A DNA stretch of 64,000 bases from Pseudomonadota bacterium (GTDB lineage Bacteria; Desulfobacterota; S145-22). Of this stretch, positions 7,792 to 64,000 are shown in pieces. The DNA lies in contig WGDA01000153.1 of assembly GCA_015493505.1 (NCBI GenBank), positions 1,962 through 65,961 of the forward strand, given 5' to 3'. The notes beneath the pieces were generated by a model, which searched no databases, had not been told where the DNA came from, and was given only the letters and a program-made list of their open reading frames with translations. Every line of letters begins with the position of its first letter. The first letter of the stretch is position 1. The position numbers and the translations under genes are program-made.

Positions 7792-9966
7792 GTGACACAA
7801 ACCACACCTTCCACTGACTCAGCTTTACAAAAAGCTGCCACAAAAAGAAGTGCCCGCAAACACCCTCTTCGTGCGCTGAAATACTTTATTACCCTGGGGT
7901 TCAGCCTCGCGATACTGGCGTATCTGGGGAATTCTATTTTCGTTGCCGAGAAGAGGCGGGTGATTCAGCAGCACCTCCTTCAGGCCCAGCTCGTGGCACG
8001 CCTTGGGGCCACTTCCATCGCGTATGATTTCGATAAAATCAGGAACGGCCAGCAGATTATTGTTTCTTACCTTGAACATAAACATTGGTGGCGCGTCCGG
8101 GAGGTGAAGCCGCTCCTGGAATCTTTTGTCAAGGCCAATCACGATATCGTCAAATGGGGCGGGGTTTCCCGAATGGACGGGAAGGTCCTGCTCCAGGTGC
8201 CCGAGAGGGCGTCTCTCCCCTTTAACATCAGAAAGCTTGTGAGTAGTGTGCGTGTCCCAAGCCCGGATGGAGTGGTCAAGGTCCTCTACGATCAACGTTT
8301 TGTCCTTTTTCTGCGTCAAATCAATCACTCTCCCTCCATCCGGTACCTCTTTTGGTGTGTGGGAACCTTTGAGGATTTTCTCCGGGGATTTTCCGTTTAT
8401 GAGGGGTTTGAAAGACGGTACCTCTGGCTGGTGTTTCAGACTGCTCAGGGTCAGAAGGCTCTTTTCATGGATACGCATTTCAGGCAGCACCTGATGAACA
8501 CCCATTTCCCCCTGCCTTTTGGGAAGAAGGAGCTGACTTTTGAGGGGGAAACACTCCTCGTGGGTGCCCATCCCTTTCAGCTTGGGAAACTGAGGGGCTG
8601 GTTCGTCGTGGGGATCCCCAAAAACCGAATCGAGGGGCAGCTTTCTGAATTCCGCAATAAGGGCATGATGCTCACCGGCTTTTTTGTCATCTTTTTCGCG
8701 GTGTTTCTCTATACCTATTTCAAAAACCGAAGTCGGCGCATCGTGGCGGAGCGGACCGCCAATATCAGCCGGGAGATTCTCATCTCCAAACAGCAACTTG
8801 AATCCTATATTGAGAACTCCTCCGATGGTATCCTGAGGAATGACCTGGATGGCAAGATTCAGTTTGTCAATCCCGCCTTTACGCGGATCTTTGGTTGGGA
8901 GGCGAGGGAGGTGGTTGGCAGAAATATCCGGGACATCTTCCCCGAAGACAGAGAGAGGATTGAAAGGGTGATCGAGACCATCAAGGCGAAAAAATCGCTT
9001 CCGCCCTATGAGACACGCCGCCGCCGCAAGGACGGCCAGATTCTGGATCTCTATGTTTCTGCCTCTCCCATTCTGAACAGCCGGGGAGAGGTGATCTCCA
9101 TCACGGCGGTTTACCGGGATCATACCCGCCTGAAACGCCTTGAAGACCGGCTGTATCAGTCCGAAAAGATGGCTGCCATTGGCCAGCTGGTTGCCCAGAT
9201 CGCCCATGAAATAAACAACCCGCTCTCGACTTTGCAATTTTCCCTGCAACTTCTCCGGAGGTCCAAGCCGGGCGATCCGGATTTCATGGAAGAGATTGAA
9301 GATATGGACGAGGAGATCAGGCGAATCGCCCGCATCGTCAACCAGTTGCTCTCCTTCTCGCGTCCCCAGTCGAAACGAAAACGACAGGCGTCGTTGCGGC
9401 GCGTCTTTCGGAATAAGATGCTGCAGCTTCTCATTAAGAACCTCCGGGAACGGGGCGTGGAAGTGACCGTTGATTTTCCCGAGTCTCTTCCCATGGTGCG
9501 GGTCTATTCAGACCAGATGCTCCAGGTCTTTATGAATCTTATTCAGAACGCGGGGGATTCCATCGGTGAAAAGGGCAGGATTTCCGTTTCGGCCAGGGTG
9601 AAGACACAAGATTATGACGGGTTTTACCAGCTTCCTTCACGGGTAGGCGAGGTAAGGTCTCCCGGGGGAAAGGTGGTGGAGATCGTGGTTTCCGACACGG
9701 GTGAGGGCATTCCGCCAGACACACTCCCCCATATCTTTGAACCCTTCTTTACCTCTAAGGGAGCCAATGGAACCGGTCTGGGCCTTTCCATTGTTCACAG
9801 CATCATCAGCCGCGCGGGAGGCAGCATCGAGGTGGAAAGCACGCCTGGCAAAGGCACAAAATTTACCATCGTTCTGCCGGCTGTCGAACAGCGGTCCAGG
9901 CGTGACAAGAAGGATAAAAGTATGGTAGAGAATGAACAGCAGACGGAACCACAAAAAGGGGTGTAA
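7792..9966 (+). CDS. Sensor histidine kinase (TM, PAS, HisKA, HATPase_c)
   Basis: Contains a PAS segment (FVNPAFTRIFGWEAREVVGRNI), an H-box IAHEINNPL, an N-box, and G-boxes DTGEGIP and GTGLGLSIV. Putative GTG start. Confidence 0.85.
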   Translation: MTQTTPSTDSALQKAATKRSARKHPLRALKYFITLGFSLAILAYLGNSIFVAEKRRVIQQHLLQAQLVARLGATSIAYDFDKIRNGQQIIVSYLEHKHWWRVREVKPLLESFVKANHDIVKWGGVSRMDGKVLLQVPERASLPFNIRKLVSSVRVPSPDGVVKVLYDQRFVLFLRQINHSPSIRYLFWCVGTFEDFLRGFSVYEGFERRYLWLVFQTAQGQKALFMDTHFRQHLMNTHFPLPFGKKELTFEGETLLVGAHPFQLGKLRGWFVVGIPKNRIEGQLSEFRNKGMMLTGFFVIFFAVFLYTYFKNRSRRIVAERTANISREILISKQQLESYIENSSDGILRNDLDGKIQFVNPAFTRIFGWEAREVVGRNIRDIFPEDRERIERVIETIKAKKSLPPYETRRRRKDGQILDLYVSASPILNSRGEVISITAVYRDHTRLKRLEDRLYQSEKMAAIGQLVAQIAHEINNPLSTLQFSLQLLRRSKPGDPDFMEEIEDMDEEIRRIARIVNQLLSFSRPQSKRKRQASLRRVFRNKMLQLLIKNLRERGVEVTVDFPESLPMVRVYSDQMLQVFMNLIQNAGDSIGEKGRISVSARVKTQDYDGFYQLPSRVGEVRSPGGKVVEIVVSDTGEGIPPDTLPHIFEPFFTSKGANGTGLGLSIVHSIISRAGGSIEVESTPGKGTKFTIVLPAVEQRSRRDKKDKSMVENEQQTEPQKGV

Positions 9967-9978
9967 GGGGATCAGACC

Positions 9979-10395
9979 ATGCCTCGGATTCTCATTGTCG
10001 ATGACGAAGTCAAACTGGTCAAGAAGCTGAAGAAGCTGCTTGAAAAGGATGGCTTTGAGATCAAGACGGCTGGAAATGGCAGAGAGGCGCTTGAGGTCAT
10101 CCGGGCCTCTGACCCCTTTGATGTGATTATTTCGGATATCCGGATGGAAGAGATGGACGGCCTGACCTTTCTCAAACAGGTGCACCAGGACGGGCTTGAC
10201 GTGGGCGTGATTATGATAACCGGATATGGGGACATGGACACCTTTCTGGAGTCCCTTTATTTTGGCGCCTTTCAGTATATCCAGAAGCCCGTGCATTACG
10301 ATACCCTGTTGGAGACGATTAACAAACTGCTTCTTGACCGGGAACGAGAGAGGAAAAAGAAACGCAGACATCCCAAATCGAGGAAGGAGAGATGA
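9979..10395 (+). CDS. Single-domain response regulator (CheY-like receiver, no output domain)
   Basis: MPRILIVDDE...DVIISDIRM fits the receiver phospho-acceptor context. The protein is 138 aa with a K/R-rich tail. Confidence 0.8.
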   Translation: MPRILIVDDEVKLVKKLKKLLEKDGFEIKTAGNGREALEVIRASDPFDVIISDIRMEEMDGLTFLKQVHQDGLDVGVIMITGYGDMDTFLESLYFGAFQYIQKPVHYDTLLETINKLLLDRERERKKKRRHPKSRKER

Positions 10396-11024
10396 TCGGA
10401 CCTAACAACACAGAAAGATTGGACAAGGTTGTGAAGGCACTTGAGGCGCGGGATTTTGAAGCGCGCTGGGTCCCGGACAAGGCCACGGCGCGCCAGGTCA
10501 TTCTGGAGAGGGTTCAGCCGGGCGATGCCGTGGGGGTTGGGGGTTCTGTCAGCATCCGTGAATTGGAGGTTCTCGACACGCTCAGGGAAAAGGGACATAC
10601 GGTGTATGACCACTGGATTCCCGGCCTTTCCAAGGATGAGATCCTGAAGACACGTAAGCTGCAGATGCAGTCAGATATCTTCCTGAGTGGGACAAACGCC
10701 CTGATCTCTGATGGCCGGCTGGTCAATATCGATGGCATCGGGAACCGTGTTGCCAGCATGATTTTTGGACCGGAGCGTGTCATCCTGGTAGCCGGTGTCA
10801 ACAAGATTGTGGAGACGCTGGACGCCGCGATGTATCGCATCAAAAACGTGGCGACGCCCCCCAACGCCAAGAGACTGTCCATCCCGACACCCTGCGCGAA
10901 GACGGGGAGGTGCATGGACTGCCGCAGCCCTAAGCGGATCTGCCGCGCCGTGACCATTCTTGAGTGGCGTCCCTCCCTGACGCAGATCCTTGTCCTCATC
11001 GTGAATGAACCTCTGGGATACTGA
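10392..11024 (+). CDS. LUD-domain protein (lactate-utilization LutC/YkgG-like, DUF162)
   Basis: 210 aa with LUD-family characteristics. Its start overlaps the stop of the response regulator gene. Confidence 0.5.
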   Translation: MIGPNNTERLDKVVKALEARDFEARWVPDKATARQVILERVQPGDAVGVGGSVSIRELEVLDTLREKGHTVYDHWIPGLSKDEILKTRKLQMQSDIFLSGTNALISDGRLVNIDGIGNRVASMIFGPERVILVAGVNKIVETLDAAMYRIKNVATPPNAKRLSIPTPCAKTGRCMDCRSPKRICRAVTILEWRPSLTQILVLIVNEPLGY

Positions 11025-35867: not shown

Positions 35868-36222
35868 TGGTGGAGGCGGCGGGAATCGAACCCGCGTCCG
35901 AGAGTCTTCGGCATGAGTCTCTACATGCTTATCCGACCTATTGCATTCGCCGATCAATTGCCGGTCGGCAGGCACCTTGATCGGCATAGCCTGAAGGTCT
36001 TAGCCGCTTTCCGTTAGGCAGCGAAAAACGGTGCAACCTGTCTCGATGACGCCTCGTCAGGGTGTGACAGGTTGACACCCTGGGAGACGTGGCGGTCAAT
36101 TAAGCCGCCAGAGCGTACTCGTAGTCGTTCGCATTTATGTTTATTTCCACCAGATTCCGGGCTGGCAGACCCCGGCATGCAACCCATACCTCAACTACTC
36201 CCGTCGAGCCCTTTTCGCCCCC
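35868..36222 (-). ncRNA. ssrA: tmRNA (SsrA), tag peptide ANDYEYALAA
   Basis: The minus-strand 5' end is GGGGGCGAAAAGGGCUCGACGGG and the 3' end is GGACGCGGGUUCGAUUCCCGCCGCCUCCACCA (tRNA-Ala-like acceptor with T-arm). An internal ORF reads GCG AAC GAC UAC GAG UAC GCU CUG GCG GCU UAA. Confidence 0.9.
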
Positions 36223-43859: not shown

Positions 43860-43935
43860 GCTGGCGTAGCTCAATCGGTAGAGCAGCTGATTTGTAATCA
43901 GCAGGTTGCGGGTTCGAGTCCCATCGCCAGCTCCA
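43860..43935 (+). tRNA. tRNA-Thr (anticodon UGU)
   Basis: Cloverleaf with GTTCGAGTC T-arm and anticodon loop tttgtaa. Confidence 0.85.
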
Positions 43936-43951
43936 TAAGAGGGAGTTTCAT

Positions 43952-44036
<85 letters not shown>

Positions 44037-44040
44037 CGAC

Positions 44041-44117
44041 GCGGGAATAGCTCAGTTGGCTAGAGCATCAGCCTTCCAAGCTGAGGGTCGCGGGTTCGAG
44101 TCCCGTTTCCCGCTCCA
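44041..44117 (+). tRNA. tRNA-Gly (anticodon UCC)
   Basis: Anticodon loop cttccaa with a GGTTCGAGTCC T-arm. Confidence 0.85.
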
Positions 44118-44135
44118 TAAGGTAAGATAGTGAGG

Positions 44136-44209
44136 CCCACGTAGCTCAGGGGTGGAGCACTTCCTTGGTAAGGAAGAGGTCATCGGTTCAATCCCGATCG
44201 TGGGCTCCA
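44136..44209 (+). tRNA. tRNA-Thr (anticodon GGU)
   Basis: Anticodon loop ttggtaa, acceptor stem gcccacg pairing with cgtgggc, and CCA end. Confidence 0.85.
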
Positions 44210-44291
44210 TGGTTTGAAAAAAATTAGGGTGTTGAGATATAAGACATACAGAAAAAGAGTTTAACGTTTAATTTTCAAAGGGGGAACAGGC

Positions 44292-45482
44292 ATGGCGAAG
44301 CAGAAATACGAGAGGACGAAGCCGCACGTAAACATAGGGACGATAGGGCATGTGGATCATGGGAAGACCACCTTAACGGCGGCGATCACCAAGATACTGG
44401 CGGAGAAGGGCAAAGCGGACTTTGTGCCGTTTGACGAGATAGACAAGGCGCCGGAAGAGCGGGAGCGTGGGATCACCATCGCCACAGCGCACGTGGAATA
44501 TGAGACCGACAAGCGGCACTACGCGCACGTAGACTGTCCTGGGCACGCCGACTACATCAAAAACATGATCACCGGGGCGGCGCAGATGGACGGAGCGATT
44601 CTGGTTGTCAGTGCTGCGGATGGCCCCATGCCCCAGACCCGGGAGCACATCCTTCTGGCCAGGCAGGTAGGCGTTCCCTACATCGTCGTCTACTTAAACA
44701 AAGCCGACATGGTTGACGACCCCGAACTGCTCGAGCTGGTTGAACTGGAAGTACGGGAGTTACTCAGCAGCTACGACTTCCCCGGGGACGACATACCCAT
44801 CATCGTGGGCAGTGCCTTAAAGGCCCTGGAGGGAGACAAGGGAGAATACGGCGAGCAATCCATCTTCAAGCTGTTAGACGCCATAGACGAATACATCCCC
44901 GAGCCGCAGCGAGACATCGACAAACCCTTCCTGATGCCGATAGAAGACGTCTTCAGCATCAGTGGGCGTGGGACCGTGGTAACGGGGAGAGTCGAGCGTG
45001 GCGTCATCAAAGTGGGAGACGAAGTGGAGATCGTTGGGATTCGCCCGACCCAGAAAACCGTCTGCACCGGTGTGGAAATGTTCCGAAAGATCCTGGATCA
45101 GGGGCAGGCTGGGGACAACATTGGCGTCTTGCTAAGGGGCATCAAGCGGACCGAAGTTGAGCGTGGGCAGGTTGTGGCGCAGCCTGGGAGCATCACCCCG
45201 CACACCCATTTCATGGGAGAGGTATACGTCTTGACCAAGGAAGAAGGTGGGCGGCACACCCCGTTTTTCAATGGGTATCGTCCGCAGTTTTACTTTCGGA
45301 CCACGGACGTGACGGGAGTAGTGACCTTGCCGGAGGGTGTGGAGATGGTGATGCCCGGAGACAACGTAACGATCGAAGTAAAGCTCATCACCTCCATAGC
45401 GATGGAAGATGGGTTACGGTTTGCGATACGGGAAGGTGGCCGGACGGTTGGCGCCGGGGTCATCAGTAAAATTATTGAATAG
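44292..45482 (+). CDS. tuf: Elongation factor Tu
   Basis: [10 protein letters not shown] and DCPGHADY motifs in a 396-aa protein. Confidence 0.98.
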
Positions 45483-45514
45483 TCTGAAGTCAGGGCTGTT
45501 TTGGAGAACAGAGG

Positions 45515-45664
45515 ATGAGAATTACCGTTCATTTGAGCTGTACGGAATGCAAGAGGCGGAATTACAGCACGACCAAGAATAAGCGGACGACCACCGAGAA
45601 GCTGGAAATGAAGAAATACTGCCGGTTTTGCAGGAAACACACCCTTCACAAGGAGGTTAAGTAG
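45515..45664 (+). CDS. rpmG: 50S ribosomal protein L33
   Basis: [49 protein letters not shown] (49 aa). Too short to appear in the ORF track. Confidence 0.85.
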
Positions 45665-45739
45665 GCCAGTAGCTCTAACGGATAGAGCGCCGGACTCCAA
45701 ATCCGGATGTTGGGGGTTCGAATCCCTCCTGGCCTGCCA
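45663..45739 (+). tRNA. tRNA-Trp (anticodon CCA)
   Basis: Anticodon loop ctccaaa, with acceptor stem aggccag pairing with ctggcct. Confidence 0.85.
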
Positions 45740-57468: not shown

Positions 57469-57545
57469 GGGGCGATTAGCTCAGCGGATAGAGCGTTGGT
57501 CTCCGGAACCAAAGGTCGCGGGTTCGATTCCCGCATCGCCCTCCA
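57469..57545 (+). tRNA. tRNA-Arg (anticodon CCG)
   Basis: Anticodon loop ctccgga with a GGTTCGATTCC T-arm. An integrase gene follows immediately. Confidence 0.85.
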
Positions 57546-57758
57546 TTTTTTAAGTTCTCTTGACATCTATTTTCCTTTATTTTATAAGACTTATAAGCGA
57601 TTTAACGGGATAGGATATTATGAGCTTGTTCTATAGAATTCTATTAAAAACCATCAAAAACCCGTTTAAAAATGGGAAAAAGTTGGGAAGAAATTGGGAA
57701 GAATGGCGGTGATGTTTAACAACAAATAACAAATCATCATAGATGGTTAGGAGACGTC

Positions 57759-59114
57759 ATGGCTGGAAATGATGATGATAAAAATGGGAAAAAAGTTGGG
57801 AAACGGCGAAAATACGGAAGTGACAAGCGTTATCCGGGCGTCCGCTGGTATGATTCCCGGATCAAAGGGCGGGTTTTTTATCTCTATTACCGCAACCCCG
57901 CCGGAAGGCTGATTGAACGAAAAGTAGGGACTCAGCATGAAGGATGGACGGCAAAACTTGTTCATGAGCGCCGTCTGGACCTCATAAAAAAATTCGAGCG
58001 TGGCGAAGGCGGCAAGGGGAAGAAGATTCGCACCTTTGGGGATGCGGTGGATGTCTTTTTTGAGCGATGTCAAAAAAGAGGGATAAAGGGAATCGCCCAG
58101 GAACGTTCCCGGCTTCGCTGGCTTTCCCATCTTTCCGATCGGCGGTTTGTGGGTGTTCTTTCCGAACTTGTTCTTACGGAGATTGTGGAAAAGATGCGGG
58201 AAGCGGGGCAATCATCAACAAGTATTCATCACGCCCTGGCTCTTTTTCGCCGCGTCGTCAACGCCGCCCTTGAAGACAAGCGGTGCCCCATTAAAGAGCT
58301 TGACCCTTATTTTAAGAAAGTTCTTTCGGATAAAATATTTGAATTTAGCCCTGACCCAGGCGGAAAAGTAGAACGGCTTCCAATGGATCAAGTAAGGACC
58401 TTTGTGGAAACCCTGGAAACCTGGCCGGACCGCTTTCACGCAAATATTGTCATTCTCGCCCTTTTTACCGGTGCGCGGAAGGGAAATATTTTAAAGTTGG
58501 AATGGTCGGATATTGATTGGGATCAAGACAAAATCATTCTTCGCAAAGAGAAAACCAAAGCGAAGCGGCGTGACACCCCAATTCCCATGAATGACATGGC
58601 GAAAAAGGCTTTACAAGAGATGCGAACCATTCGCGACAATGCCCTTGAACGGTTGGAGATGCTTCGACAAAAGGCCCTGGAAGGCCCGCCCCATGTTCGC
58701 TCAAATGCCGTAAAAGAGTTTCTTCTTTTAATGCGAAAAACCCCTTATGTCGTAAGTGAAAACTGGGACCCTGAGACGGCCCCGGAAACGGTTGAAAGAA
58801 TTCTTCATACCCCCGTTAATAAGATGGGTTCCCCCTATGTTTTTCCGGGAAAGGGTGGTGGTCAACGGGTCGAGATTCGAAGAGGAATTCAAAAGATACG
58901 CGCGGCGGTGGGAATCCCGCCCGACTTCCGCATGCTTCATGGGTCAAGACATCAATTTGCAAGTTTATTAGCCCTCAGTGGCGCTCCGGCCGCGGTCATA
59001 AAGGAATTGTTGGGTCATTCTGATATTCGGATGTCTGAACGATATATTGATATGACTTATAGGGTCAAGCAAGAGGCATCCCAAAAAGTTGTTGAGCAAA
59101 TCAAGGGATATTGA
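57759..59114 (+). CDS. int: Tyrosine-type site-specific integrase
   Basis: C-terminal catalytic region HGSRHQFASLLALSGAPAAVIKELLGHSDIRMSERYIDM carries the R..H..R..Y signature. The protein is 451 aa. Confidence 0.88.
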   Translation: MAGNDDDKNGKKVGKRRKYGSDKRYPGVRWYDSRIKGRVFYLYYRNPAGRLIERKVGTQHEGWTAKLVHERRLDLIKKFERGEGGKGKKIRTFGDAVDVFFERCQKRGIKGIAQERSRLRWLSHLSDRRFVGVLSELVLTEIVEKMREAGQSSTSIHHALALFRRVVNAALEDKRCPIKELDPYFKKVLSDKIFEFSPDPGGKVERLPMDQVRTFVETLETWPDRFHANIVILALFTGARKGNILKLEWSDIDWDQDKIILRKEKTKAKRRDTPIPMNDMAKKALQEMRTIRDNALERLEMLRQKALEGPPHVRSNAVKEFLLLMRKTPYVVSENWDPETAPETVERILHTPVNKMGSPYVFPGKGGGQRVEIRRGIQKIRAAVGIPPDFRMLHGSRHQFASLLALSGAPAAVIKELLGHSDIRMSERYIDMTYRVKQEASQKVVEQIKGY

Positions 59115-59164
59115 GTGTTTCTTTCAAATTGCGATGAATACCATCGCGAAAGGAGGGAAGGGGT

Positions 59165-59353
59165 TTGTATTTTATAGAAAAATACAAGCGCCGGACATGG
59201 GCGGTCTATGATGAGAGGAAAAATCTTGTCTGTGTCACGCTTTATAAGCGGGGTGCCGAGGAGGTGAGGCGCCGCCTTGAAAACCTCGCGACCACGGAAA
59301 GCCAGAAGTCAGGAAAGGGGAAAGGGAGAATTTATCATGAATGTCATTCTTAA
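59165..59353 (+). CDS. Hypothetical small protein (62 aa)
   Basis: ORF only; basic N-terminus. Confidence 0.3.
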   Translation: MYFIEKYKRRTWAVYDERKNLVCVTLYKRGAEEVRRRLENLATTESQKSGKGKGRIYHECHS

Positions 59354-59519
59354 AAATTTAATCACGGGTGAAGAAATCAAGGTTCACCCTTCCACCGATC
59401 ACCCTGATTCCAGTTATGGTCAACCGGTATGGGTGGATGATAACGGCAATGCCTATGGTCTGTGTGATATGGGCGCGCCGCTGGGGTTTGAGCTAATTCA
59501 AGGCAATCATAAAGATTGA
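59337..59519 (+). CDS. Hypothetical small protein (60 aa, MNVILKNLITGEEI...)
   Basis: ORF with an internal ATG after a purine-rich stretch. Overlaps the previous ORF by 17 nt. Confidence 0.3.
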   Translation: MNVILKNLITGEEIKVHPSTDHPDSSYGQPVWVDDNGNAYGLCDMGAPLGFELIQGNHKD

Positions 59520-59605
59520 AATTTCATTTTCCGGGGATCGGGCGTGCGCACCCCGAATGGCGACTTTCCCGGGTCGCCTCCCCGGATTTTTAACCACGGC
59601 GGGAG

Positions 59606-60616
59606 GTGGTTATTATGGAATCCCCAGGTAAAAACGACACATTTCGTGCCCGAAGATATACGAACAGTATAAAGGCCCTTGCCCCGACGCCCGAGGCACA
59701 AAAAAAGCTTATTCAATCCATCATTGAATTGGGCGAAGAAACCCTTCGTTACGACTTCACAAGAAAAACATCACGAGATTGGGAACGTGAAGAAAACCGC
59801 CGGAACTGGGAGGCGTGGCGGTGTTATATCCAAAAACATCCCGTCTTACCAAAGAAGGATGAAACGGCTTTCATGTTATTTTACGCGGAGATGACGGGGT
59901 TTATCGAGGCCGCCACCTGTTTTGGGGGATTCCTGAAAACGGATGAAGAAAAAACGGTAAAATTGAGAGAGCTTGTCACGTTGTGCGTGGAAAAGCATCG
60001 CCACGGACTTTCGCCCCAGGCCGCCCTTTACAAGTGGATCACCGCCGCCGGCGGGGTCTTTCTTATGACCATGGCGGCGGGATTCCCCCCCAACCCGCCG
60101 ATGATTCCCGTAAGGTTTCACCTCGCGTGGATGTCCGAAAGGCTTCGGCCCGACTCCTGGGGGATTGTTACACGAAACCTAAATGAAGTTGTTCGGGCGT
60201 GGGCGTGTCTCTTGGATGAAACGGAGCGGGAGGCCCTTTTAAGGGATTATCGTGACCGGATAAAAGGCCTTTCCTCTGCCGAATGGGGATATGAGGCCTT
60301 AAAGTTTCTCCTTGTCGAATACCTCGGGCGCGGGCGTATTCGCCTTGTTCAACCTGACGACCCCCTTGAAGAAGAAAAAACCTCATTGCCCCTGGACGCC
60401 ACCCCCGGCCACATCAAGGCCCGCATCAAGGACATCATCCGGAATATCTGCCGCCACGCGCGCCGGGAAACGGAACGAAAGACGGGAACCCCGATGACCG
60501 CCGGAGAAGTGGCGTATCATCTCTCGATCATCCTATCATACTTGAAGATTCAGACCCCGGTAAAAAAAAGGGGATATTCGGTGTATCACCTGAGAAATAT
60601 TTTTAGGGGTCAATAA
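59606..60616 (+). CDS. Hypothetical protein (336 aa), island cargo
   Basis: Long ORF with no recognisable motifs. Located between int and the replication module. Confidence 0.45.
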   Translation: MVIMESPGKNDTFRARRYTNSIKALAPTPEAQKKLIQSIIELGEETLRYDFTRKTSRDWEREENRRNWEAWRCYIQKHPVLPKKDETAFMLFYAEMTGFIEAATCFGGFLKTDEEKTVKLRELVTLCVEKHRHGLSPQAALYKWITAAGGVFLMTMAAGFPPNPPMIPVRFHLAWMSERLRPDSWGIVTRNLNEVVRAWACLLDETEREALLRDYRDRIKGLSSAEWGYEALKFLLVEYLGRGRIRLVQPDDPLEEEKTSLPLDATPGHIKARIKDIIRNICRHARRETERKTGTPMTAGEVAYHLSIILSYLKIQTPVKKRGYSVYHLRNIFRGQ

Positions 60617-60725
60617 CACTCCCAGGGTGGAAAAACGCGCCACGGGCGAAATTTCGAAGCGAGACCCCTATTTTCGGGGAAGGCACGACCCCTTAACCCC
60701 GATGGGTTCCCACCCCTCTTTTTTT

Positions 60726-61031
60726 AAGGGACACCTGGTATTTTTGACATTTGAGGCATAACAGGAAATATTTTTTTTCTTTCTTCCTTATATCCCGCGA
60801 TCATATAAGAAAATGTCAATCAGTTTATCCCGCGTAACTGTGAAAAAAGGGACACCGGGAGGGTAAATGCTCTATTTTCCCTATAGTAAAATACCTAATT
60901 TTTAGATTCCTTAAATATATGTAGAACACTCCCTAAGTGTCCCTTTTCCCTGTTTTGTGGTGTTCGCGAGAACACAACAGAAAATAATCGACGCCCACAA
61001 AGCCCCAGGTGTCCCTCGGGCGTGTCCGCGG
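60726..61031. repeat. Iteron-like array: AAGGGACACC at 60726-60735 (+) and 60847-60856 (+), inverted copies at 60938-60946 and 61008-61016, plus a gtgtccg half-site at 61021
   Basis: The 9-10-bp motif recurs four times in a 2-forward, 2-reverse arrangement within the 670-bp non-coding gap upstream of the primase gene. The outer pair, gggacacctgg and ccaggtgtccc, are perfect 11-bp inverted repeats. Confidence 0.6.
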
Positions 61032-61286
61032 AAAATAAAAGAGCATTTAAGACAAAGAACGAAGAACGCCCCAGAGTAAAAACTTGGGATGCCTTCCGCC
61101 GCGGAGCGGTGAAAATCGCGCCGATCACTTCCCAATTTCAAAAAATTTGAAGCAAAATCCCGCCGAACCTTGCCAAAACCCCGAAAGTCGGCGGGATTAT
61201 TATTTACCATTAGATAATATCAATTTGACAACAAAGGCAATAGTGTTTATAAATAGAGCATGATACACGGTGCGAGGCTGTAAAGG

Positions 61287-62369
61287 ATGGATAAGGCGGA
61301 CATTGAAAGAATCAAGATGGCGGTGGATATCGTGGCGCTTATCAGCGAAAATGTTTCACTTCAAAGAAAGGGAAAATATTTTTTCGGTCTTTGCCCCTTC
61401 CATGAGGAAAAGACCCCGTCTTTCGCTGTCGATCCCGAAAGACGGCGGTTTCGCTGTTACGGGTGCGGTGCCTCCGGGGACGCCCTCGAATATTTAGAAA
61501 AAGCGAAAGGGCTGACCTTTCAAGAGGCCCTCCGGGAGTTGGCCGGCCGCGCGGGGGTCGAGATCAAAATTTCATCTCCCGGCCCCGTCTTTAACCGCCC
61601 CTTGACGGTCCCCGAGAGGCGGAAGGAAGTTTTTAGCCCTCCGGCCATCGAATTCCCAAACAAAATATGGCGCGAACACAGCGTCAAATTTTTGATTGAA
61701 AGCCATTTAGAGCTTATGGAAGACAAGGCGGTCCTTCGTTATCTCGGAGGCCGGGGAATCCCACCGGGAACGGCGGAAATGTTTGGCTTGGGGTGGAATT
61801 CAAAAGATGGTTACCGGGACCGTGGCGCGTGGGGTCTGGATGCCACAAGTGGGAAAAGTCTTTATTTACCCGCTGGAATTACAATTCCATCTTATCGGGA
61901 CAGAATGCTTGTAAGAATCAGGATTCGGCGGCGCGAGGGCGAATCCCGATATTTTATCGTGGCGGGGTCGGCGTCTTGCCCCATGGTTTTTCCCCCCGGG
62001 GAAACCGTGCCCGCTATTTATGTCATCGTCGAAAGCGAGCTTGACGCCATCATGATTGCCGGACTTCAAACACCCGTTGGTGTGGTCGCCACCGGGTCCG
62101 CCTTTGCGAAGCCCGATGAAGCCCTTCACGAAACCCTTTCCAGGGCGAAGCGGCTCCTCATCGCCCTGGACAACGACACCGCCGGGCAAAATGCCGCGCG
62201 ATGGTGGCTTGATATCTATGACCACGCGCGGCGGGTTGCCTTCCCCGATGGCGCGAAAGACCCCGGGGAGCTTTACCAAAAAACCGGAGATATCATGGGA
62301 TGGCTCAATGAAAATTTGCCGGAGCGCCTTCGAAGGCGCGAAAGACGGGAAGGAGGTGAAAAGATATGA
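61287..62369 (+). CDS. DNA primase (CHC2 zinc finger + Toprim)
   Basis: CPFHEEKTPSFAV...CYGCGASGDALEY is a CHC2 zinc finger. The Toprim acidic motif is LIALDNDTAGQNAA. Confidence 0.8.
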   Translation: MDKADIERIKMAVDIVALISENVSLQRKGKYFFGLCPFHEEKTPSFAVDPERRRFRCYGCGASGDALEYLEKAKGLTFQEALRELAGRAGVEIKISSPGPVFNRPLTVPERRKEVFSPPAIEFPNKIWREHSVKFLIESHLELMEDKAVLRYLGGRGIPPGTAEMFGLGWNSKDGYRDRGAWGLDATSGKSLYLPAGITIPSYRDRMLVRIRIRRREGESRYFIVAGSASCPMVFPPGETVPAIYVIVESELDAIMIAGLQTPVGVVATGSAFAKPDEALHETLSRAKRLLIALDNDTAGQNAARWWLDIYDHARRVAFPDGAKDPGELYQKTGDIMGWLNENLPERLRRRERREGGEKI

Positions 62370-62572
62370 CGGAATGGATGAATACCCGTGAAATGGCGGA
62401 ACGGCTTCGCATTTCGGAGAAAACGGCGATCGCGTGGCGGTATCAGCGCCGCGGTCCCCGGTTTTATAAACTCGGTCCGCGGACGGTTCGTTATCGGCGT
62501 GAAGACATCGAGGCCTTCGCCCGGTCGATGCCCGTGGGAACTGTTGACCAACCGCCCGCCGATCCGGAGTGA
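62366..62572 (+). CDS. AlpA/excisionase-like HTH DNA-binding protein
   Basis: 68 aa. NTREMAERLRISEKTAIAWRYQRRGPRFYKLGPRTVRYRREDIEAF matches the phage AlpA/MerR-like HTH pattern. Confidence 0.65.
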   Translation: MTEWMNTREMAERLRISEKTAIAWRYQRRGPRFYKLGPRTVRYRREDIEAFARSMPVGTVDQPPADPE

Positions 62573-62763
62573 GCGCGCCCCTTCCTTTCAGGAAATGAAA
62601 AGCGCGTCCCTGTGCCTCCGGGTCCTTTGGGAGAATGTCAACCGCACGGTGCGCCGAGGTCCGGTTTATCTCCAATTTTGCCAAAATTCGCGGGGTTGGA
62701 AAATCGGAACGGGTGCAACGGATTCGATTGAAATCACAGAATAAAAAATGAAGGGGTGAGAAA

Positions 62764-63096
62764 ATGAAAAGACGTGACGAATTCCAAAACGTTGACCACG
62801 AAAAACTTATGGTTTACGCCCGTCAAGCCCTTCTGGCTTGGCTGGAGGCGTCAAGGGCTCTGATTGAAATTCGGGGGCTTTACGGCCCGTGGTATCGCAC
62901 ACAAAACCCACGCTCGATGGCGGAACTTTCGAAGGAAGAACGGTTGGTTGTCGAGGAACTGGACCGGCTCGAACACGCCCCGTTCGGTGCCTGCGAGGCC
63001 TCATTTGCCCGGGTTTTCAAGATTCTGGGCGATCCCGACAACGAACTGATAAACCCTCTCGGAATTAAGGGAGACGGAAACGATGCGGTCCAATGA
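62764..63096 (+). CDS. Hypothetical protein (110 aa)
   Basis: ORF only. Confidence 0.35.
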   Translation: MKRRDEFQNVDHEKLMVYARQALLAWLEASRALIEIRGLYGPWYRTQNPRSMAELSKEERLVVEELDRLEHAPFGACEASFARVFKILGDPDNELINPLGIKGDGNDAVQ

Positions 63097-63146
63097 TGAG
63101 GAAATCCGTTTCCACATGAAGAAATGTAAAAAGCAGAGGCAGTGTG

Positions 63147-64000
63147 ATGAAAAGCGTTGATTCCCTCGATCCGGCTTTCGTTCAATCGTGTCTTGACCGT
63201 GCGCAACGCGGCGATGGCGAACTGTTCGCCCACCTTTTTCGGGATGAATTCTTTTATGAACCGAACGCCAACGAATGGTATTATTGGACGGGACACACCT
63301 GGGCGATCGATATGGAGAATAAACACCTCGCCGCGGTGGATCGGGTGGCCCAGGCCTATCTCGCCGCCGCGGACCGGTGTTTTCAGGAACGCCGCGCCCT
63401 AACCCAAACACCGGAAGACAAAAGGCGGGATGGGCAATTAAAGAGGCTTCAAGAGGCCTTCCTTAAACGCGGGCGTCAATTACGCACCGCGGACGCCCGG
63501 CGGAAGGCCTTGGAATTTGCTGTTTCCATCGAGAATCCCTTGATCACGACGGCGGACCGTCTCGATCAACATCCCCTTTTGATCGGCACCCCGAACGGCG
63601 TTATCAACCTGGAGCTTGGAGACTTCGAAGAAGGCAAGCCCGGGCAATTCATCACGAAGGCGACGGCGGTGAAATGGGCGGGGTTTAATGCCCCGTGCTC
63701 TACCTGGGAAAGAATCTTGATTGAAATTTTCAACGGAGACACCCAGGTTCCCCGTTATCTTCAGCGGGTCATCGGATATGCCCTCACAGGGAAACCTAAT
63801 CGGGATGTCGTCTTTTTTCTCGTGGGCAGGGGTCGCAACGGGAAATCCCTCATCGCGAAAACCCTTGTTGAAGTCTTGGCCCCTTATGCGGCGACAATTC
63901 AAAGCGAGACCCTTTTGGCCGGGGTTCGGCGTGCCGCCGGCTCCCCTAATCCGGAAATTCTCAGGCTCCGCGGTTTAAGACTCGCCTTTGCCAGTGAAAC
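63147..64000 (+). CDS. P4-family phage/plasmid primase C-terminal domain with SF3 helicase (partial, continues beyond window)
   Basis: Open frame with no stop before the window end. Contains the WYYWTGHTW segment and Walker A VGRGRNGKS. Confidence 0.7.
   Translation, partial: MKSVDSLDPAFVQSCLDRAQRGDGELFAHLFRDEFFYEPNANEWYYWTGHTWAIDMENKHLAAVDRVAQAYLAAADRCFQERRALTQTPEDKRRDGQLKRLQEAFLKRGRQLRTADARRKALEFAVSIENPLITTADRLDQHPLLIGTPNGVINLELGDFEEGKPGQFITKATAVKWAGFNAPCSTWERILIEIFNGDTQVPRYLQRVIGYALTGKPNRDVVFFLVGRGRNGKSLIAKTLVEVLAPYAATIQSETLLAGVRRAAGSPNPEILRLRGLRLAFASE

Follow-up and report, generated by a model that had tools for sequence, protein, structure and literature searches.

The question raised by this locus is what kind of mobile element sits behind a tRNA-Arg(CCG) gene, and how far its resemblance to satellite phage P4 extends. 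The window analyzed here comprises 64,000 nucleotides of contig WGDA01000153.1 (assembly GCA_015493505.1, positions 1,962 to 65,961 of the forward strand), and a sequence-only reading of it had described the segment starting at the tRNA gene as a P4-like integrative element. We consider it likely that the segment is the left part of a 9.0-kb integrative, self-replicating, non-self-transmissible island in an uncultured Thermodesulfobacteriota bacterium related to anaerobic sulfate reducers, with a helper phage as its most likely vehicle. It is an ordinary, if rare, hitch-hiking element and not a true P4 satellite. Possibly, it is a minimalist phage satellite resembling PICMIs (minimalist chromosomal islands that are phage inducible) or tycheposons.

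The window holds only the left 6.5 kb of the island. Looking up the primase protein led to contig JALUNB010000158.1 (L001) of the metagenome-assembled genome (MAG) GCA_027055435.1, which is 99.76% identical to the window across 12.7 kb, and everything beyond position 64000 was read from this contig. The insertion is site specific: it lies in the 3' half of the tRNA gene, has regenerated the tRNA, and leaves the island bounded by a 43-nt direct repeat. The tRNA gene is intact despite the insertion, and its identical copy in L001 scores 71.2 bits against the Rfam tRNA model. The repeat starts at the anticodon, within the anticodon loop. Its right copy, attR, is perfect (L001 15224-15266) and lies 9003 nt from attL, well short of the 30 kb or so within which the sequence-only reading had expected to find it. 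That the element continues past the window was likewise correctly anticipated, its right boundary lying about 2.55 kb beyond the window end. When 1 mismatch is allowed, the repeat reaches 49 nt. At this length (L001 15218-15266), the sole mismatch is found at its left, with TCG in the element-derived copy where the tRNA anticodon is CCG, which places the crossover to the right of it. The features at the left end are as follows.

57470-57545, plus strand: tRNA-Arg(CCG), the integration target (ARAGORN).
57504-57546, no strand: attL core, 43 nt, direct repeat running from the anticodon to 1 base beyond the tRNA 3' end.
57655-57700, plus strand: putative arm-type sites of the integrase (P' arm), consisting of a 35-nt block with TGGGAAAAAGTTGG and an overlapping second copy.
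57786-57799, plus strand: third arm-type repeat copy, GGGAAAAAAGTTGG, within the first codons of int.

The arm-type repeats occur near both ends of the island. A 35-nt block, CAAAAACCCGTTTAAAAATGGGAAAAAGTTGGGAA, is perfect at 57655-57689, about 110 nt inside attL, and is again perfect at L001 15124-15158, roughly 70-100 nt inside attR. Extra copies of the TGGGAAAAAGTTGG core lie at 57684-57697 and 57786-57799. At no more than 2 mismatches, L001 contains six matches to the arm repeat, compared with 0.39 expected. A circular form would carry these candidate arm repeats on either side of the core, an arrangement typical of integrase arm-type sites. One further copy, matching the arm-type repeat TTAAAATTGGGAAAAAGTTGG at 20 of 21 positions, lies outside the island in the host flank (L001 15347-15367, 81-101 nt right of attR), perhaps left behind by an element that occupied this tRNA site earlier.

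All eight genes downstream of the tRNA are on the plus strand, and the last of them runs off the window end. The sequence-only reading had seen an AT-rich block immediately after the tRNA. This onset is real but modest: GC drops from about 0.55-0.59 to 0.42 in 57500-57999, and over 57547-64000 it is 0.509 overall, compared with 0.551 in the rest of the window. The proposed integrase, CHC2/Toprim primase, AlpA-like gene, 110-aa open reading frame (ORF), and P4-family helicase were all recovered by family searches and ORF calls. Structural or hijacking genes, for which room had been left beyond the window, are not there. The unseen 2.5 kb or so in L001 hold the helicase gene's 3' end, another copy of a noncoding box module, a MazE-PIN gene pair, and nothing else; the order after the helicase gene is about 1 kb of noncoding DNA, the antitoxin gene, the toxin gene, and attR. 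The genes and the noncoding module of the island are listed below.

57759-59114, plus strand: tyrosine integrase, 451 aa (PF00589, E 2.6e-20; PHROG_1, E 1.5e-45).
59165-59353, plus strand: o62, a conserved small family ORF of 62 aa, no family match.
59337-59519, plus strand: o60, a conserved small ORF of 60 aa (80 aa from a TTG at 59277), no family match.
59615-60616, plus strand: ORF333, 333 aa (336 from a GTG start), predicted all-helical, a near-orphan.
60712-61060, no strand: noncoding module copy A, 345 bp, candidate origin/operator region, duplicated beyond the window.
61287-62369, plus strand: DnaG-type primase, 360 aa, CHC2 zinc ribbon and Toprim.
62366-62572, plus strand: HTH_17 protein, 68 aa, AlpA/Xis-like regulator or excisionase, its start overlapping the primase stop by 4 nt.
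62764-63096, plus strand: o110, 110 aa, an ORF conserved in the family and located directly upstream of the helicase gene.
63147-64000, plus strand, cut by the window end: P4-family helicase (D5_N and superfamily 3 [SF3]), 506 aa in full, first 284 codons visible.
L001 14417-14680: MazE-fold antitoxin gene (PF04014).
L001 14677-15075: PIN toxin gene (PF13470; TIGR00305, 68 bits against a cutoff of 29.15).

The integrase connects the island to a small family. It has only three close homologues (53, 49, and 43% identical), and all of them lie next to tRNA-Arg(CCG) or to a fragment of this gene. Two of them were found among 5.8 billion proteins and the third, at 43%, was found besides; an integrase-profile scan of the JGI metagenomes returned just the two contigs already known. 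Together with the three sister elements (L170, L173, and L175; integrases 43-53% identical), which lie at or beside the same tRNA, the island belongs to a family of four members that share core genes where complete. The one complete sister, L170, is an 8.8-kb element inserted in tRNA-Arg(CCG) in another genomic context. It is flanked by a perfect 51-nt repeat, shows an equivalent of the arm repeat at each end, and carries the core gene set of the island, with amino acid identities of 53% for int, 56% for the primase, 52% for o62, 44% for the HTH_17 protein, 71% for the o110 homologue, 53% for the helicase, and 91 and 93% for MazE and PIN, respectively. The L173 contig starts with a tRNA-Arg(CCG) fragment and carries int, o62, o60, and HTH_17 genes, and L175 has the identical full tRNA followed by int (43%), RadC, a 402-aa protein, and an HTH_17 protein (55%). 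After the HTH_17 gene, where o110 and the helicase would be expected, L175 has two adjacent ORFs of 118 and 112 aa (9784-10480). The 118-aa ORF resembles the helicase C terminus (27% over residues 418-495), and neither a helicase nor a primase gene appears before the contig ends.

The replication genes of the island were supported by family searches. The primase matches PF01807 (Zn_ribbon_DnaG, E 9e-32), Toprim_2 (E 8e-9), and PDB entry 1D0Q (E 9e-28), and it has both the glutamate (VESELD) and the DxD (DNDTAG) Toprim motifs. Its TIGR01391 score of 149.5 bits is under the equivalog cutoff of 283.6, and it has no DnaB-binding C-terminal domain. The HTH_17 protein matches PF12728 (E 2.3e-10) and PHROG_66, annotated as excisionase and transcriptional regulator (E 8e-8); its TIGR01764 score (22.6 bits) is under the cutoff of 28.8, and it gave neither a PF05930 match nor BLASTP similarity to P4 orf88. 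The visible part of the helicase matches D5_N with an E value of 1e-23 (2.7e-23 for the full L001 protein) and shows the Walker A motif GRGRNGKS. The full protein passes TIGR01613, "phage/plasmid primase, P4 family," with 203.9 bits against a cutoff of 108.7, and its PDB matches are African swine fever virus C962R (E 8e-12) and 7OLA. A DUF5906 match is weak (E 9e-4; 20.3 bits, under the 27.6 cutoff). Between the HTH_17 gene and the helicase gene lies o110, whose L170 homologue overlaps the helicase start. It resembles neither P4 cnr nor the helicase C terminus, and its AlphaFold2 model reached a pLDDT of 62. A 95-nt noncoding stretch between the HTH_17 gene and o110 (62645-62738) is 84% identical in L170; either a regulatory site kept in both elements or a short gene that escaped annotation may lie there.

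What had been called an iteron-like array does consist of repeats, which are part of a larger unit, a 345-bp module duplicated beyond the window. Copy A lies in the 670-nt noncoding gap between ORF333 and the primase gene. Copy B, 87-89% identical to it, lies just downstream of the helicase gene (L001 13485-13830), so that the two copies bracket primase-alpA-o110-helicase. Copy A contains four GGGACACC boxes built on GGGACAC(C), two forward and then two reverse, one of which is degenerate:

60728-60738, plus strand: box 1, GGGACACCTGG.
60849-60859, plus strand: box 2, GGGACACCGGG.
60933-60943, minus strand: box 3, degenerate, GGGACACTTAG, with an exact counterpart in copy B.
61005-61015, minus strand: box 4, GGGACACCTGG.

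The window contains 3 exact copies of GGGACACCNGG against 0.23 expected, all within 60728-61015; copy B has four exact boxes, compared with three exact and one degenerate in copy A. Eight of the 12 GGGACAC sites in the 21 kb of L001 fall inside the two modules (binomial P of 6e-10), and 6 of the 8 in L170 fall inside its two noncoding regions (P of 4e-4). The stretches between the boxes of copy A are 68-75% AT, a promoter-like TTGACA-17-AATATT site abuts box 1, and the module includes a palindrome with 10-bp arms, TGTGGTGTTCGCGAGAACACAACA, with 1 mismatch.

Differences between the window and L001 are concentrated around this region: 27 of the 30 are packed into noncoding positions 60655-61095, and of the 17 sites that differ inside the repeated module, 16 agree with copy B in one strain or the other. 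This suggests gene conversion or mixing of the copies by the assembler, neither of which covers the approximately 10 differences that fall just outside the repeat. The two complete elements share a conserved, GC-rich noncoding block that contains a repeat about 24 nt long (GCCGGCGGYCCGGGTGG…TTGTGCC), at L001 13899-14130 and at L170 6445-6532 and 9930-10080; in L170, it occupies both noncoding regions. Considered as RNA, the block folded no better than shuffled sequence (z of 0.31). Across the whole island, Rfam detected only the tRNA, plus a weak, sub-threshold match of the tmRNA model over the tRNA fragment at attR; a P4 CI-like RNA was not found.

The three ORFs between the integrase gene and the module had been put down as unknown cargo. 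The first half of that description stands, as o62, o60, and ORF333 have no Pfam, PHROG, NCBIfam, or meaningful PADLOC match. The second half does not apply to two of them. o62 is 49-54% identical at the same position in L170, L173, and L174, and o60 has a homologue in L173 that is 69% identical. Because they are present in sister elements, o62 and o60, like o110, are best regarded as family genes and not as cargo. A profile of the o62 family gave only noise against PDB, and the one PADLOC hit of o62 itself, to GajB, was marginal (E 0.0087). ORF333, on the other hand, is likely a variable accessory gene. Among 5.8 and 1.8 billion proteins, only ORF333 itself, a variant 88% identical to it, and one remote relative were found. 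The latter (P0125, E 1.9e-5) is the 402-aa protein of L175, the sole remote relative, which is 27% identical and stands at the equivalent position (int-RadC-ORF402-HTH_17). ORF333 is absent from L170, and its AlphaFold2 model (pLDDT 41) was too poor for a fold search.

The right end of the island, past the window end and between the second box module and attR, is formed by the MazE-PIN pair. The genes are adjacent, with overlapping stop and start, as fits a type II, VapBC-like toxin-antitoxin system. The segment that contains them together with the attR-proximal arm is 83% identical at the DNA level between L001 (14188-15266) and L170 (10187-11267), and MazE and PIN are the two proteins that reach 91 and 93% identity, whereas the integrases, primases, and helicases of the same two elements are only 53-56% identical. 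The right end thus looks recently exchanged or far more constrained than the remainder.

Relatives of the replication genes were found in phages as well as on plasmids. We noticed that the 96 helicase homologues found were mostly stand-alone proteins of about 520 aa. The phage-like contigs that were inspected carry a GpA-type terminase gene, one of them also portal and capsid genes, and in them a separate zinc-ribbon/Toprim primase gene follows the helicase gene. Where compared, the phage-contig primase was 32-33% identical to that of the island over nearly its full length. The nearest relatives in terminase-bearing phage contigs are about 40% (helicase) and 33% (primase) identical, and a small Desulfuromonadales island beside tRNA-Arg(CCT) has the same helicase and primase pair. 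The split of primase and helicase over two genes, which the sequence-only reading had presented as a departure from P4, is confirmed as such and is not peculiar to this island. Because the phage contigs and the Desulfuromonadales island also have separate genes, the two-gene state is ancestral in this lineage and is standard among its closest relatives, the Desulfobacterota phages. Peculiar to the island in comparison with these phages is that the primase gene comes first, with alpA and o110 inserted between primase and helicase. Among the plasmid records with helicase homologues is an 8.4-kb circular one with integrase, HTH, and P4-family primase genes; others are 12-14 kb. The former, NZ_CP037897.1, is a free circular "plasmid" of 8456 bp from Thermaerobacter sp. 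FW80, with genes for a tyrosine integrase, a MerR/HTH protein, and a P4-family primase in fused form. The end of the record repeats the first three proteins along with part of the integrase, so that the true unit is probably about 6.9 kb.

The host context is ordinary. The closest RpoC matches (86-93% identical) come from Thermodesulfobacteriota MAGs. The island sits inside tRNA-Arg(CCG), with rpoC on one side and an Ech-like operon on the other. Directly right of attR, L001 has a terminator-like hairpin, which fits the original downstream flank of the tRNA. Beyond the hairpin follow a fluoride riboswitch (L001 15517-15581; RF01734, 52.8 bits against a gathering score of 34) and an Ech/Hyf-like membrane hydrogenase operon. 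In the 8 nearest genomes (those with RpoC 86-93% identical), neither the tRNA-Arg gene nor the Ech-like operon follows rpoC. The whole region is absent from them, and these genomes are therefore unusable as empty-site comparators. Conserved synteny of the region in relatives without an integrase, which would have spoken against an integrative element, was not seen in them. Upstream of rpoB-rpoC, which end just before the insertion site, the window contains a tmRNA gene (35868-36222, tag ANDYEYALAA) and five tRNA genes at 43860-45739 (Thr, Tyr, Gly, Thr, and, about 1.5 kb on, Trp), which is an ordinary core context of the host.

How would such an island be maintained and spread? The tyrosine integrase and the HTH_17 (AlpA/Xis-like) protein would excise it as a circle. 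In P4, the alpha protein recognizes the type-1 repeats of ori and crr; by analogy, the SF3 helicase of the island would open the DNA at the modules with GGGACACC boxes. Synthesis would be primed by the DnaG-type primase, leading to plasmid-like amplification, and the MazE-PIN pair would stabilize carriage. No capsid, terminase, portal, tail, packaging, hijacking, relaxase, or secretion/conjugation genes were found when all ORFs of the complete island were searched against Pfam, PHROGs, and NCBIfam. Since capsid, terminase, relaxase, and secretion genes are lacking, transfer would need a borrowed vehicle, most likely a helper phage, in the manner of PICMIs or of tycheposons that resemble phage-inducible chromosomal islands (PICIs). 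The helper phage is favored because the replication genes have phage affinity and because PICMIs provide a precedent; transfer is nevertheless the weakest step of the mechanism. A plasmid-like or vesicle route is a less likely alternative, in favor of which helicase homologues occur just as often on plasmids, small circular integrase-HTH-primase replicons among them.

Several observations weigh against a replicating, phage-carried island. Its attR is known from the near-identical contig L001 and not from the window's own continuation. Neither an excised circle (attP) nor an empty site (attB) was found, and an exact scan of the JGI metagenomes for the attR/attB junctions gave 0 matches. The modules could be duplicated promoter/operator regions, their role as origins and the binding of the boxes being putative, and L170 lacks the 345-bp duplication, having only clustered boxes and a 56-65-nt similarity between its noncoding regions. 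Helicase homologues are as common on plasmids (490 records) as in phages. Scans of IMG/VR with the integrase, the helicase, and o110 returned no relatives, and the scan with the primase returned distant full-length matches only, at no more than 33% identity. Neither a helper phage nor a cos/pac site or packaging gene came to light, and the noncoding DNA of the island matches none of the fetched phage loci.

The alternatives differ in how they explain this gene set. A phage-independent, plasmid-like integrative episome that spreads by vesicles, by transformation, or by mobilization through an unrecognized oriT would fit the 490 plasmid records, among them the 8.4-kb circular one, the toxin-antitoxin pair, which is a typical plasmid maintenance module, and the want of any recognizable packaging or interference gene. 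Hallmark genes of tycheposons are, moreover, enriched in vesicles (bioRxiv 10.1101/2020.12.28.424599). The island, however, has no partition, relaxase, or Rep-initiator gene, the closest relatives of its helicase and primase are those in terminase-bearing phage contigs, and proven minimalist satellites carry the same gene set; we give the episome an appreciable but minority chance. A decayed prophage that kept its integration and replication end and lost its structural genes would fit the homologous replication genes of Desulfobacterota temperate phages, which lie beside GpA-type terminase, portal, and capsid genes. Such an origin is quite improbable, given that both att repeats are perfect, all genes are intact, and the independent L170 repeats the size (8.8-9.0 kb), the gene set, and perfect 51-nt repeats of its own, as random decay would not produce the same gene set and size twice.

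Two further explanations concern the cargo and the pedigree of the island. Host defense might be its main role, with ORF333 and MazE-PIN as antiphage cargo on a mobile backbone. PIN toxins can act in abortive infection, and ORF333 varies within the family, being absent from L170 and represented in L175 by a relative of 27% identity. Satellites also commonly carry defense hotspots (PMC9122126, PMC10085698). PADLOC gave no match for ORF333, MazE, or PIN, though, ORF333 has no detectable domain and a poor structural model, and a defense function would add a cargo role without competing with the mobility mechanism, which makes it unlikely as the main role. The proposal that the island is a genuine P4-like satellite, hijacking a P2-type helper and redirecting capsid size, draws on its integrase at a tRNA, its AlpA-class gene, its TIGR01613 helicase (203.9 bits), an ori/crr-like pair and gene order as in P4, and a size of 9 kb, near the 10-kb median of P4-like elements (PMC10085698). 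In SatelliteFinder, P4-like satellites are defined by seven core components (int, psu, delta, sid, alpA, epsilon, and alpha), of which at most two may be missing (PMC10085698). The island has at most 3 of the 7: the integrase is present, and psu-delta-sid, epsilon, and a single-protein alpha are not. BLASTP and tblastn over the complete element, and for psu-delta-sid over both L001 and L170, detected nothing that resembles P4 sid, delta, psu, epsilon, cI, cnr, orf151, or vis, and no unassigned ORF has a Pfam or PHROG match. The helicase aligns with residues 413-639 of P4 alpha at 23% identity (E 0.017), the primase zinc finger with the N terminus of alpha at an E value of 0.015, and the integrase with P4 Int in BLASTP at an E value of 0.1, so the sequence link to P4 is only a deep one. 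The att core of 43-49 nt in the anticodon loop, against 20 bp in P4, and a Thermodesulfobacteriota host, when about 93% of P4-like elements are from Enterobacteriaceae (PMC10085698), also speak against this proposal. As more than two of the seven core components are missing, the island is, by gene content, not a member of the P4 family. We regard the hijacking reading as barely credible, and as a claim of membership it is effectively refuted.

A likely helper-dependent, self-replicating island of this build is of a kind already familiar. Small tRNA-integrated islands that combine an integrase with an AlpA-class regulator and a P4-family primase-helicase are found widely, often under the annotation "P4 family," and no long-standing question is opened by this one. 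What it adds is an example with clear limits (9.0 kb, att repeats that are perfect, arm sites, and two box modules) in a phylum without catalogued satellites, and a reminder that a P4-like backbone layout can persist without any P4 hijacking genes. The family, with four members, is also small enough for its conserved unknown ORFs to be noticed as candidates for interaction with a helper. More tentatively, and with considerable doubt, the island and its three relatives can be proposed as the first recognizable phage-satellite family in Thermodesulfobacteriota, a minimalist one with P4-style two-site (ori/crr-like) replication, separate primase and helicase, and no known hijacking genes. If this is true, o62, o60, and o110 would encode a new way of exploiting a helper phage.

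The label "P4-like" holds for the layout of the backbone (the int-attP-crr-alpha-cnr…vis-ori half) and not for the family. The annotated P4 record (NC_001609) reads, on one strand, ori (type-1 repeats), orf88/vis, cI, epsilon, orf151, orf106 (cnr), alpha, crr (type-1 repeats), attP, and int; the island, read as a circle, gives module A, primase, alpA, o110, helicase, module B, MazE-PIN, attP, and int. The backbone architecture is the same. Both elements use a tyrosine integrase to insert at a tRNA 3' end and have arm repeats that flank the core on either side, with one covering the start of int, a small HTH protein (in the island only putatively of the AlpA/Vis class), a helicase of the P4 primase C-terminal family (TIGR01613), and two clusters of short repeats in both orientations that bracket the replication operon (ori/crr in P4, the modules in the island). 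By position, o110 is the counterpart of orf106/cnr. In contrast to P4, the island has no sid-delta-psu operon and no homologue of epsilon, cI, or cnr. Its primase is a separate CHC2 DnaG-type gene upstream of alpA, whereas P4 alpha is a single protein; its integrase, unlike the P4 type, gives no match to the arm-binding domain PF13356. Its att core is longer and its host phylum different, as noted above, and MazE-PIN lies between the second repeat cluster and attP.

Closer in economy are the PICMIs, which are recognized by colocalized int, alpA (PF05930/PF12728), and primase (DUF3987/DUF5906) genes, are about 6-7 kb long, occur in Vibrionaceae only, and lie next to fis, the hallmark given by their authors (PMC10803314). 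In this proven satellite, int, alpA, and prim suffice (PMC10803314). The island contains the same trio (PF00589, PF12728, and a weak, sub-cutoff DUF5906 match plus D5_N), without the fis neighborhood. Like PICMIs, it is small and has no recognizable functions besides int, an AlpA-class regulator, and a primase-helicase of the P4/D5 family, with a few unknown ORFs in addition, and it has no capsid-remodeling or packaging genes. It differs in being 9 kb and in tRNA-Arg rather than about 6-7 kb and beside fis, in its separate primase and helicase genes, and in that its helper is only putative. Gram-negative PICIs, of about 9.5 kb, have a left module of int, alpA, and pri-rep (PMC6092414, PMC10085698). 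The island shares this module and the similar size; terS, ppi/rpp, and capsid morphogenesis genes were not detectable in the complete island with Pfam, PHROGs, and NCBIfam, which leaves it with three of the five PICI core components when SatelliteFinder requires at least four. The comparison with P4-like satellites and PICIs that had been suggested at the outset thus recovered the P4 backbone order and the PICI left module, and the remaining core components of both are absent.

Judged by its genes, the design is closest to PICI-like tycheposons and to the marine VEIMEs (integrative mobile elements encapsidated in virions). These have a tRNA-specific tyrosine recombinase that leaves a partial tRNA repeat (bioRxiv 10.1101/2020.12.28.424599; PMC9618062), a modular backbone of integrase, excisionase, and primase/helicase with variable cargo, and, as the island apparently has, the relic of an older insertion beside the same tRNA. 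Tycheposons and VEIMEs are known from Prochlorococcus and other plankton of the sea and possess an integrase clade of their own, and the island is likened to them by build. The recombinase of the island is, like theirs, specific for one tRNA, with full and partial tRNA sequences (the 43-nt repeat) at its flanks, and integrase homologues stand beside tRNA-Arg(CCG) in four independent contexts, with the full gene in the window/L001, in L170, and in L175 and a fragment in L173.

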